Shown here piece after piece: positions 12,038 through 15,000 of a stretch of 28,109 nucleotides of DNA. The DNA is from Corallococcus exiguus. Lineage in GTDB: Bacteria > Myxococcota > Myxococcia > Myxococcales > Myxococcaceae. Position numbers and translations under genes: made by a program. The stretch lies in the NCBI RefSeq assembly GCF_013155575.1, contig NZ_JABJTU010000116.1. The stretch is one strand, 5' to 3'. Every line of letters begins with the position of its first letter. Position 1 is the stretch's first letter. The notes under the pieces were generated by a model, which saw only the letters and a program-made list of their open reading frames with translations, was not told where the DNA came from and searched no databases.

Positions 12038-15000
12038 CTACCGGCGCGCCTTGCGAGCCGGCTTGCCCCGAGTGGTCTTCTTCGCCGCGGCCTTCTTCGC
12101 GGCGGTCTTCTTCCCCGCCGCCTTCTTCGCCGAAGCCTTCTTCGCAGGAGCCTTCTTCACCGCCGCCTTCTTCGCGGCCGTCTTCTTGCCCGCCGCCTTC
12201 TTCGCGGAAGCCTTCTTCGCAGGGGCCTTCTTCGCGGCGGACTTCTTGCTCGCCGCCTTCTTCGCGGAGGCCTTCTTCGCAGGGGCCTTCTTCACCGCCG
12301 CCTTCTTCGCGGCCGTCTTCTTGCCCGCCGCCTTCTTCGCGGAAGCCTTCTTCGCGGGGGCCTTCTTCGTCGGAGCCTTCTTCACCGGCTTCGCCGAACC
12401 CTCCGGCGCCTCGCGGGCGTCGCCGCCCTCCTTGGCCCGGTCGAACTCGCGCATCGCGTCGTCCACGAGGCCCATGCTCATGTACGCGACGCCCAGGTCG
12501 TGGTGGTCCGCCGGTGACAGCCCTTCCTTGGTGCCCTCGCGCAGCTTTTTGAGGGCCTCCTCCACCACCGGATCCGCGGCCTGGGGCGCCTGCGAAGCCT
12601 CTTCGGCTTCAATTTCGCCCTTCAGCTCCTGGCCCAGGTTCACCGCTTCGTCCTTCGGTTCCTGCGGCTCGGTGGCCACCTTCACCTGGGCGCTCTCGGG
12701 CGCGGGGGACTCGGACGCTTCAGGGGCTTCGGACTCGGTGCTGCCCGGCAACGGCGACGGCGTCTCGGACATGGGGGGCTCCGGGGCGATGCGCTGGAGG
12801 TGATCCTGCAGCTTGACCGTGCGCTCCTGGAGCTCCGCCACCCGGGCCTTGTCCTTCTCCACCACGTCCGGCGGAGCACGGGCCACGAAGTTCGGGTTGT
12901 CCAGCTTGCGCTGCAAACCGGTGAGTTCCTGCTCGGAGCGGATGATCTCCTTCTTCAGGCGGTCGCGCTCCGCGTCCAGGTCCACCAGGCCCGCCAGGGG
13001 CACGTAGATTTCCAGGTTGCCGCTCACGAACGCCGCCGCCTGCGGAGGCTTGGCGCCCGGGGGGCCCACCACCACTTCGGACAGGCCCGCGAGCGGCATC
13101 AGGTACGCGCGCCAACGCTCCAACAGCTCGCGCGTCGTCGCGTCCGGGCTCTGCACCACCGCCTTCACCTTGGCGGACGGCGGCAGGTTGCTCTCACCGC
13201 GCAGCGTGCGCAGGCCCTCGATGGCCGCGATGACCGGCGCCATCTCGCCTTCCGCGGCCGCGTCCACCCACGCCGTCTCCGGCGCCGGGTAGGCCGCGAT
13301 GCAGATGCTCTCCGTGGGCCGGGACATCGGCAGCTTCTGCCAGATCTCCTCGGTGATGAACGGCATGAACGGGTGCATCAGGCGCAGGATGCGGTCCAGG
13401 CACGTCACCAGCACCGCGCGCGTGGTGTCCTTGGCCTCCGCGTCGTCGCCGTACAGCGAGCCCTTCGCCAGCTCGATGTACCAGTCGCAGAACTCCGCCC
13501 ACAGGAACTGGTACAGCGTGGACGCGGCCTCCGCGAAGCCGAACGCCTCCAGCGACGCGCGCGTCTCCTCGGTGGCCTTCTGCAGGCGGGAGAGGATCCA
13601 CCGGTCCGCCAGCGTCAGCTTGCGGCCCTCCAGCGGCGTCTTGTCCAGGCTGAAGTCGCCCATGTTCATCAGGGCGAAGCGGCTGGCGTTCCACAGCTTG
13701 TTGCAGAACGCCTTGTAGCCACCCAGGCGGTCCATCGACAGCTTGATGTCACGGCCCTGCTGCGTGAGCGACGCCAACGTGAAGCGCAGCGCGTCCGCGC
13801 CGTGCGCGGGCATGCCCTGGGGGAAGCGGTTGCGCAGCGACGGCTGCAGCGACTCCGCCTTCGCGCCGAGGATGACGTCCAGGGGATCGATGACGTTCCC
13901 CTTCGTCTTGGACATCTTCTCGCCCTTCTCGTCGCGCACCATCGCGTGCAGGTACACGGTGCGGAAGGGCACGTCGTTCATGAAGTGCAGGCCCATCATC
14001 ATCATCCGGGCGACCCAGAAGAAGATGATGTCGTGGCCCGTCTCCATCACGGACGTCGGGTAGAAGGTCTGGAGGTCCGCCGTCTGCTTCGGCCAGCCCA
14101 GCGTGGAGAACGGCCACAGCGCGGACGAGAACCAGGTGTCCAGCACGTCCGGATCCTGCGTCAGCTCCTTGCCGCCGCACTTCGGGCAGGACTCCGGCGC
14201 CGTGCGCGACACGATGACGTCCGCCGTGTCCTTCGAGCGCTCTTCCGCCGGCGTGCACGCCGCGCAGTACCACGCCGGAATCTGGTGGCCCCACCACAGC
14301 TGGCGGCTCACGCACCAGTCGTGGATGTTGTTCATCCAGTGGAAGTACGTGTTCGTCCACGACTCGGGGACGAACTTCGTGCGGCCCTCTTCCACGGCTT
14401 GGATGGCCGGCTTCGCCAGCGGTTCGATCTTGATGAACCACTGCGGCGACAGGCGCGGCTCCACCACCGTGGTGCAGCGCTGGCAGGTGCCCACGTTCAG
14501 CTTGTGCGGCTCCTCCTTCTCCAGCAGGCCCAGCTCCGTCAGGTCCGCCAGCACCTGCGTGCGCGCCTCCCGGCTCTCCAGGCCCGCGTACTTGCCGGTG
14601 TCCTTCGTCATCCGCGCCGCTTCGTCCAGGATGGACAGCATCGGCAGCTTGTGGCGCAGGCCCGTCTGGTAGTCGTTGAAGTCGTGCGCGGGCGTGACCT
14701 TCACCACGCCGGTGCCGAACTCCATGTTCACCAGCTCGCCGTCCGCGATGACCGGAATCTCACGGTCGGTGAGCGGCAGCGCCACGCTCTTGCCGATGAG
14801 GTCCTGGTAGCGCGGATCCTCCGGGTGCACGGCGACGGCCGTGTCGCCCAGCAGCGTCTCCGGGCGCGTCGTCGCCACGGTGAGGAAGCGCTCCGTGCCC
14901 TTCACCGGGTAGCGGATGTGCCAGAGCGAGCCGTTCTTCTCCTCGTGCTCCACTTCCAGGTCGGAGAGGGCCGTGCGGCAGGACGGGCACCAGTTGATCA

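Follow-up and report, generated by a model that had tools for sequence, protein, structure and literature searches.

The 28,109-nucleotide stretch of Corallococcus exiguus DNA analysed here (contig NZ_JABJTU010000116.1; hereafter the window) carries the valyl-tRNA synthetase (ValRS) gene valS on its minus strand (12038..15532; ATG start, stop codon at 12038..12040) as an uninterrupted open reading frame (ORF) of 1164 codons in a single frame. The encoded protein of 1164 amino acids (aa) continues for 249 aa past the coiled-coil arm, the last canonical element of a ValRS (aa 916-1164, 12041..12787). This appendage is tripartite, a disordered acidic linker being followed by a small helical module and by a disordered polycationic tail that resembles histone H1. 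An initial annotation of the window, made from the sequence alone, had described an extension of about 260 aa, composed of an acidic P/E/S-rich linker, a tetratricopeptide repeat (TPR)-like helix pair and a lysine-rich tail of about 130 aa. The extension and its linker hold up, with the whole somewhat shorter than supposed and the tail measuring 118 aa. The helix pair is indeed present at aa 1008-1035, but it is a piece of a larger module of about 90 aa that is homologous to part of the Myxococcus xanthus protein SgmX.

The core has the properties of a class Ia ValRS: a Rossmann fold with HIGH and KMSKS signatures, the CP1 editing domain, the anticodon-binding domain and the coiled-coil arm. 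Pfam places tRNA-synt_1 at aa 20-599 (502 bits) and Anticodon_1 at aa 643-792, and reading of the sequence locates HIGH at aa 55-58 and KMSKT at aa 539-543. The C-terminal coiled-coil tRNA-binding arm (Val_tRNA-synt_C, PF10458, 67.6 bits) occupies aa 851-915 (12788..12982, minus strand), with helices at 852-878 and 888-914 in the AlphaFold2 (AF2) model. Three NCBIfam valS equivalogs are passed, namely TIGR00422 (1135 bits), NF004349 (1252.6 bits) and NF011492. The protein is 99% identical to the C. exiguus ValRS P0001, whose cluster comprises 33 members, all of exactly 1164 aa. The M. xanthus orthologue of valS is MXAN_4460, and valS, directly downstream of romR, encodes the housekeeping ValRS of the Myxococcaceae; the orthology is based on a locus organisation that agrees with the legend of Fig. 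1 in an earlier study of M. xanthus (PMC2034494).

The long form of ValRS is already known and present in databases. NF011492 (PRK14900), a model for long-form valine--tRNA ligase, scores 1820.7 bits against a cut-off of 1783 and aligns aa 1-1110 of the protein with model positions 3-1022 of 1044, a match that takes in linker and module and extends into the start of the tail. It is an annotation model, which names the product 'valine--tRNA ligase' and is silent on the appendage. Since this curated model covers the long form, long-form ValRS is annotated though not characterised. Our search for publications on the C-terminal extension found no paper discussing a ValRS tail, and MXAN4460 is described only in a figure legend, as 'similar to Val-tRNA synthetases' (PMC2034494). 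The tripartite anatomy, the homology to SgmX, the position at the romR locus with split and lost variants, and the co-variation of charge appear not to have been described before.

It is hardly credible that the long form is an artefact of assembly or annotation, in which a collapsed repeat or a frameshift joined valS to a downstream gene. In a related lineage valS and an ORF for a basic tail do form two genes, which share the frame and are parted by one stop codon, and this could be cited in favour of such a fusion. However, the same fused ORF occurs in more than 100 independent assemblies, among them the complete chromosomes of C. coralloides, M. xanthus, M. stipitatus and Melittangium boletus, and the 33 members of the P0001 cluster agree in length to the residue. 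The GC content at third codon positions (GC3) in the ValRS frame is 0.88-0.96 in each segment of the extension, as in the core, and therefore the extension is coding in this frame. The higher-order unit of the repeat that encodes the tail is also short, at only 75 nucleotides (nt). On the strength of the many assemblies and the uniform GC3 the artefactual fusion was rejected and the extension is regarded as genuine. Two plus-strand candidates in the same region were discarded as well. The ORF at 12051..12803 ('AFFAAAFF') is a mirror of the AKKA repeat and fails the codon-position test, and the apparent terminators within 12082..12361 are a mirror effect of that repeat. Scans of the window for Rfam families and tRNAs found nothing.

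The linker (aa 916-947, 12692..12787, minus strand) consists of 28% P, 22% E and 22% S and has a net charge of -7. It is predicted to be disordered, the full-length AF2 model giving a predicted local distance difference test (pLDDT) score below 50 for aa 920-970. An alignment of 36 diverse tails showed it to be hypervariable in length and sequence across genera: it is about 50 aa longer in M. xanthus and missing from a set of 'Archangium sp.' proteins of the metagenome-assembled genome (MAG) type. Together, linker and module carry a net charge of -20.

At the other end of the appendage, after a spacer of ten residues behind the module, begins the K/A/P-rich tail (aa 1047-1164, 12041..12394, minus strand), with 38% K and 36% A, 21 xxxKK pentapeptides plus a terminal segment, and a net charge of +49. 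It is predicted to be disordered (pLDDT about 30 across aa 1044-1164). Its H1-like character, as described in the initial annotation, is confirmed by composition and by a match of Pfam HC2 (PF07382) to aa 1049-1161 (44.8 bits, gathering score 40). The curated H1-like families are not reached, NF038053 hist_H1_lk_Burk scoring 51.8 against 80 bits and NF038052 Hc2 27.7 against 135, which means that the tail is like H1 and Hc2 in composition only. Tandem Repeats Finder delimits the DNA repeat that encodes the tail to 311 nt (12077..12387; period 15, 20.7 copies), with a higher-order unit of 75 nt in 4.1 copies (83% matches). The repeat had been foreseen, although at 390 nt, and so had its proneness to copy-number change, which is borne out by unit numbers that vary and by units that are reshuffled between close strains. 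Within Corallococcus the tail measures 130-148 aa with reshuffled pentapeptide units, and the main difference between the window protein and its near-identical relative P0001 is a swap of units at aa 1064-1075.

The same combination of variable sequence and constant charge is seen on a wider scale. In 87 homologues the tail ranges from 38 to 275 aa (median 122) and its net charge from +9 to +67 (median +41), always positive; 51 of these tails terminate in RR, and nearly all long forms have a basic tail that ends in RR, KR or KK. Tails of higher positive charge are preceded by regions of stronger negative charge (n=84; Spearman rho -0.77, without correction for phylogeny). As length and order of units vary while the charge stays positive, we infer that selection may act on the tail as a charge feature and not as a sequence.

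The helical module between linker and tail (aa 948-1036, 12425..12691, minus strand) was delimited by alignments, an exhaustive profile search, the match to the NCBIfam SgmX model and hhalign. Its consensus opens with VKVAP..G.VDLGxELKxEL, followed by a second helix and by one putative TPR, and across 59 sequences 23 of its columns show either no variation or a conservation of at least 90%. In the full-length AF2 model the helices at 988-1000, 1007-1019 and 1023-1035 have a pLDDT of 72-86; for the latter two a pLDDT of 84-95, about 90 in the isolated module, was obtained. These two helices probably form a single TPR repeat (aa 1007-1036, 12425..12514, minus strand). TPRs are helix-turn-helix units of 34 residues with a consensus pattern of small and large residues and usually stand in arrays of at least three. 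Pfam registers the ValRS repeat below threshold and as one repeat only (TPR_2 17.0 bits, cut-off 27; TPR_14 17.1 bits, cut-off 23.5), and a profile of the module matches MamA (E 2e-6) and consensus-TPR structures in the PDB. A Foldseek comparison of the isolated module with the PDB returned no significant match, the top matches all being TPR proteins with E of at least 0.9.

A generic TPR is insufficient as an explanation of the module, since the half that lies outside the TPR also matches SgmX-like proteins specifically. We searched 1.84 billion representative proteins exhaustively with the module profile. Among the best 150 matches, ValRS fragments aside, the proteins that match the whole module in one stretch (profile positions about 8-95) are long TPR proteins, identified by NCBIfam as distant relatives of SgmX, and the match falls at about positions 815-925 of 1065 in the SgmX model. 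Conversely, the SgmX model itself (NF052243) matches aa 946-1037 of the window ValRS at positions 826-925 (E 6e-6); this is a local match of 24.8 bits, against a cut-off of 1800 for the equivalog domain. In hhalign, ValRS modules and the SgmX-type domain align over 79 columns that include both helices before the TPR (probability 99.2%, E 7.7e-20). A hidden Markov model of the non-TPR half gives 7-19 bits with SgmX-like proteins and at most 4 bits with generic TPR proteins, and 9 of the 11 residues that are invariant among SgmX-like proteins in the shared range are identical in ValRS.

The order of elements in SgmX-like C-terminal domains is an FDLAxELxxEL helix, a spacer, a helix reading sxEDvFxxFKKGV, and three TPRs (TPR-a, TPR-b and TPR-c) followed by ..YRDV.., with TPR-a reading HYDLGIAYKEMGLxDDAIxEF. 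The signature of the SgmX/Bd2492 type, an acidic FDLAxEL helix and an FxxFKKGV helix just before the first C-terminal TPR, is present in ValRS. The architecture of three TPRs (TPR12-14, ending ..YRDV..R..) is absent, as the ValRS modules end after TPR-a and the basic tail starts in the alignment where TPR-b would. These comparisons indicate that the ValRS module is, by sequence, a true homologue of the start, about the first third, of the SgmX/Bd2492-type C-terminal TPR domain, its repeat being the counterpart of the first TPR in the SgmX triad. In M. xanthus the last three TPRs of SgmX (TPR12-14) bind MglA-GTP directly (PMC7668184; PMC9811614), and a KD of 0.6 uM has been reported for its C-terminal domain (PMC13408092); Bd2492 is the SgmX homologue of Bdellovibrio (PMC7519303). 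SgmX-like C-terminal domains are widespread beyond myxobacteria, for instance in Thermoanaerobaculia and Nitrospirota. A profile search with the SgmX domain that was meant to retrieve the SgmX of Myxococcaceae itself returned only fragments of Thermoanaerobaculia or Anaeromyxobacter type among its top 120 matches.

Comparison with other ValRS proteins showed the extension to be restricted to a lineage and not universal. The module motif D[HR]xDLGVAY is found in 86 of the 120 best clustered homologues. Long ValRS proteins (1040-1332 aa) are encoded in Corallococcus, Myxococcus, Pyxidicoccus, Citreicoccus, Hyalangium, Stigmatella, Melittangium, Archangium, Aggregicoccus and numerous MAGs. When one genome was scanned for each species, 127 loci that encode the module were detected, and all 80 of those listed are of the Myxococcaceae or Archangium type. 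Related MAGs labelled Myxococcaceae have ValRS proteins of 910-934 aa without the extension (about 70% identity). The appendage is thus specific to a lineage and conserved across the clade, with loss in some sublineages and, in one, a split from valS.

In the split lineage (the P0117 cluster with 84 members on many contigs; loci L081-L083) an Ala codon is replaced by an in-frame TGA, which ends valS at 918 aa (..NLSRI*). A gap of 15 nt with GGAGG follows, and then a separate ORF of 136 aa that starts with MSERTPEE and comprises an acidic part rich in G, M, P and S and a K/R-rich tail ending in SRR, without the SgmX-like module. In three other tail-less lineages valS leads directly to nadC. The converse loss, of the module with the tail kept, is seen in some lineages, Melittangium among them; P0046, P0047 and P0055 are proteins of this type. 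A midpoint-rooted neighbour-joining tree of the ValRS core, which has no outgroup and is only indicative, groups the tail-less forms together, beside a tail-bearing form and with tail-bearing forms on both sides; this topology fits a single gain with later secondary loss and one fission, and the appendage probably arose once. The persistence of a separate ORF in the split lineage also implies that covalent attachment to ValRS is not obligatory, and action of the tail in trans is possible.

The start of the split ORF (GGAGG-ATG) is collinear with a conserved GGAG-N6-ATG at the beginning of the linker of the fused genes. Right after the coiled coil, linker-type genes read ..cgc atc gcc ccG GAG nnn nnn ATG.., encoding R-I-A-P-E-x-x-M. 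In the window this element spans 12770..12782 on the minus strand, with GGAG at 12782..12779 and ATG, the codon of M921, at 12772..12770. The element is conserved in the loci L001-L042, and of 61 linker-type proteins 53 retain the PExxM motif, in contrast to the hypervariable remainder of the linker. Judged by conservation and collinearity, GGAG-N6-ATG would be a relic or else a working internal ribosome-binding site with its start codon, and one possibility is that the fused genes also produce a free module-plus-tail protein from it. The gene calls P0121, P0122 and P0136 open with M(S/N)E.. in the linker and cover nothing but module and basic tail (151-239 aa), with NadC joined on in P0136. 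They could be either free-standing versions or calls truncated on short contigs (those of P0121 and P0122 are below 2 kb).

Given so much variation, the appendage might be a largely neutral accretion, in which a slippage-prone GC-rich repeat grew at the 3' end of an essential gene and was tolerated without a specific function. The tandem-repeat DNA, the extreme variability of linker and tail in length and sequence, and the repeated loss in sublineages would all agree with this explanation. We consider it improbable, because the appendage has been kept in more than 100 species with a constant polarity of its charge blocks, because the basic C-terminus (..KARR) and the 23 columns of the module are conserved, because acidic and basic charges co-vary, and because a basic tail has persisted as an ORF of its own behind an in-frame stop.

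The genes that surround valS belong to the romR locus, which in M. xanthus comprises MXAN4462 and MXAN4463 as neighbours and MXAN4460 as the ValRS gene (PMC2034494). Upstream of valS and on the same strand, at a distance of 53 nt, lies the romR orthologue (15586..16932, minus strand). Its product has a receiver (REC) domain (Pfam Response_reg), about 200 aa of proline-rich repeats of the PPGARPPGA type and a C-terminal MglC-binding helix reading ...EKIAWEVVPQLAEAIIREELERLIKDRETQH, with W at position -27 from the end. The ORF as listed starts at TTG; the true start is likely M29, which gives 420 aa, the length of RomR in M. xanthus, and reproduces the landmarks E390, K391, W394, E402 and H420 of the C-terminal part of that protein (PMC12719032). 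The RomR proline-rich repeats, mirrored, form the end of a long spurious ORF on the plus strand (12800..16666). Nine nt downstream of valS follows nadC, encoding quinolinate phosphoribosyltransferase (11150..12028, minus strand; Pfam QRPTase_N and QRPTase_C), and no terminator-like sites on the minus strand were found between romR, valS and nadC. Beyond romR, a CheW-like gene (16966..17778, minus strand) and a gene for a REC-GGDEF diguanylate cyclase (17811..19220, plus strand) correspond to MXAN4462/MXAN4463, and a gene for a hybrid histidine kinase-REC protein (19783..21312, plus strand) lies beyond the latter. Across the 80 listed species loci, tblastn detected the RomR C-terminal helix in 66 and nadC in 77, most of the misses being loci that end early on the upstream side.

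The order romR-valS-nadC also surrounds tail-less valS genes. This implies that valS and romR were neighbours before the appendage existed, or irrespective of it, and their adjacency cannot by itself be read as a functional link. As evidence for such a link the adjacency is weakened accordingly. In the tail-less P0096 lineage (L086, 764..2912), a romR-like gene and valS are separated by three small redoxin/AhpC-TSA genes that run on the opposite strand and interrupt a junction that is tight elsewhere.

The neighbourhood and the homology to SgmX together raise the question of a connection with cell polarity. The SgmX-like module could bind MglA-GTP or another partner of the SgmX domain and couple ValRS, as an abundant enzyme of translation, to the MglA/RomR polarity system of gliding cells, with the basic tail as an anchor. 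The binding protein would be either ValRS itself or the free module-plus-tail protein started at the internal GGAG-ATG, and the coupling could take the form of localisation, titration or the sensing of translational status. Such a link would agree with the homology of the module to the start of the domain with which SgmX contacts MglA-GTP, with the short romR-valS distance and the conserved order, and with the conserved PExxM junction at which the appendage has been split off in L081-L083. We nevertheless regard it as improbable. Only the first of three TPRs is present in ValRS, and since the published MglA-binding unit is the triad, binding of MglA by a single repeat is doubtful. In addition, the synteny extends to tail-less valS genes, the split-off ORF of L081 is without the module, P0046, P0047 and P0055 bear a tail and have lost the module, and SgmX-like C-terminal domains are common outside myxobacteria, so that the fold is not diagnostic of one partner. 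Its most specific version, in which the appendage would physically link the translation apparatus to the MglA/RomR polarity switch, with the synthetase or a free protein of about 244 aa docking there and the tail anchoring it to RNA or the nucleoid as a moonlighting function or a report on translational status, seems to us a shade less probable still.

We tentatively prefer, at a confidence somewhat short of even, a reading in which the appendage combines an RNA- or polyanion-tethering tail, an acidic tuning block and a protein-docking module. The polycationic tail would be a non-specific binder of polyanions, chiefly of RNA (tRNA, perhaps rRNA). Hanging from the base of the tRNA-binding coiled coil, it could increase the local capture of tRNA or hold ValRS close to ribosomes and the translation machinery. 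The acidic block formed by linker and module would shield or tune the basic tail electrostatically, and the SgmX-like module could offer a surface for protein docking or self-association. As the tail is attached at the foot of a tRNA-binding arm, on an enzyme that uses tRNA, an RNA tether is the most economical reading. An acidic block ahead of a basic block is also the order in CarD and HMGA-type proteins. Lysine-rich domains of eukaryotic aminoacyl-tRNA synthetases (aaRSs), and cofactors of the Arc1p/Trbp111 type, bind or are held to bind tRNA non-specifically and improve catalytic efficiency, in cis or in trans, and fusions with Arc1p or with a tRNA-binding domain let the E. coli ValRS function in yeast (PMC3306390; PMC6213541). 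Within the myxobacteria, CarD of Anaeromyxobacter has a K/A/P-rich, H1-like C-terminal domain that binds nucleic acid (PMC9304148).

Several points weigh against this proposal. Its functional side rests on composition and analogy, and the scores of the NCBIfam H1-like equivalogs, far under their cut-offs, mark the resemblance to H1 as compositional. The module, and not the tail, is the best conserved part of the appendage, and a pure tRNA-tether model leaves the need for an SgmX-like module unexplained. Tail-less ValRS proteins are encoded at the same locus in related lineages, and hence the appendage is dispensable for aminoacylation as such. The correlation between the charges was calculated without phylogenetic correction. 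Finally, H1-like tails elsewhere bind DNA (CarD, Hc2) or are associated with polyphosphate granules (AlgP), which makes RNA not the sole candidate ligand.

The last of these points leads to an explanation that we judge rather unlikely, and in which the H1-like tail would bind chromosomal DNA or polyphosphate instead of RNA and position or sequester ValRS, e.g. during starvation or development, with any binding of tRNA being incidental. The match of Pfam HC2 and the succession of acidic and basic blocks would be compatible with such an anchoring. So would three observations on other proteins: the H1-like K/A/P domain of the myxobacterial CarD binds DNA (PMC9304148), the mosaicism of pentamers in Hc2 resembles the shuffling of units in ValRS (PMC2848022), and the H1-like tail of AlgP is tied to the spacing of polyphosphate granules (PMC9239181). 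Against it, the tail sits on an enzyme with an RNA substrate, beside the tRNA-binding arm, and is free of AT-hooks and other DNA-specific motifs.

Returning to the RNA tether, its closest functional analogues would be the lysine-rich domains of eukaryotic aaRSs, such as the one at the N-terminus of yeast ValRS and the N-extensions of LysRS and AspRS, together with Arc1p. The likeness lies in a basic, disordered addition to a complete synthetase, and the ability of the eukaryotic additions to work in cis or in trans (PMC3306390; PMC6213541) is paralleled by the fused and split forms of myxobacteria. In contrast to them, the myxobacterial appendage is C-terminal, bacterial and tripartite and has no sequence homology to them; and whereas the eukaryotic element is a short amphipathic lysine-rich helix, the myxobacterial tail is an H1-type tandem repeat of pentapeptides with an SgmX-like module in addition.

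With Hc2 of Chlamydia, AlgP of Pseudomonas and CarD of Anaeromyxobacter the ValRS tail shares K/A/P pentapeptide repeats and the HC2 match. The Chlamydia gene hctB, which encodes Hc2, also shows mosaicism of repeat units from strain to strain (PMC2848022), and CarD, too, is a myxobacterial protein in which a basic region has been joined to a domain of housekeeping type (PMC9304148). These proteins act on DNA or polyphosphate, however, whereas the host protein here is a tRNA synthetase. With the triad of SgmX and Bd2492 (the 'M-domain') the module shares the acidic FDLAxELxxEL helix, the FxxFKKGV helix and the first TPR; ValRS differs in having neither the second and third TPRs nor the N-terminal TPR array of SgmX, and MglA binding is known for the SgmX triad only.

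The nearest precedent for a lineage-specific addition to a bacterial ValRS that affects localisation is the CAAD-ValRS of cyanobacteria, in which an extra domain governs the location of the enzyme in the cell and not its chemistry (PMC4893482). CAAD is an inserted transmembrane domain that is unrelated in sequence, whereas the myxobacterial addition is a soluble, disordered tail at the C-terminus.

Eukaryotic tRNA synthetases acquired extra functions mainly through appended domains, of which there are few clear cases in bacteria. The appendage described here is conserved over the whole clade of the Myxococcus/Corallococcus/Archangium type, on an essential enzyme of the tractable M. xanthus (MXAN_4460), and joins an H1-like polycation to part of a known small-GTPase effector domain, two elements that can be separated. 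Tail-less, module-less and split versions provide natural controls. If the tail tethers tRNA or other RNA, it would be an independently evolved bacterial counterpart of the lysine-rich domains of eukaryotic aaRSs. If instead the module has a partner in the polarity system, this would constitute an unexpected link between translation and motility and would bear on the reading of genetic work at the romR locus.

Some other genes of the window may be mentioned in addition. A bacterial homologue of the protein that forms the vault shell of eukaryotes, 758 aa long, is encoded at 7485..9761 (minus strand); it has the domains of the Major Vault Protein (MVP shoulder, 152 bits; Vault, Vault_2, Vault_3 and Vault_4 repeats) and a long, coiled-coil-like C-terminus rich in E, R and A. 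A ferritin-like encapsulin cargo protein of the EncB family (NF058679, 109.6 bits, cut-off 90) is encoded at 19236..19904 (minus strand). At 4782..6437 (minus strand) lies the gene for a putative HExxH metalloprotease of the MXAN_6640 family (238.9 bits), of which about 80 aa at the C-terminus weakly match a model for myxosortase-dependent proteins. The gene at 188..1840 (plus strand) encodes an aromatic amino acid hydroxylase of the PRK14056 type (627.6 bits), which with its 550 aa is about twice the size of ordinary bacterial phenylalanine 4-monooxygenases.

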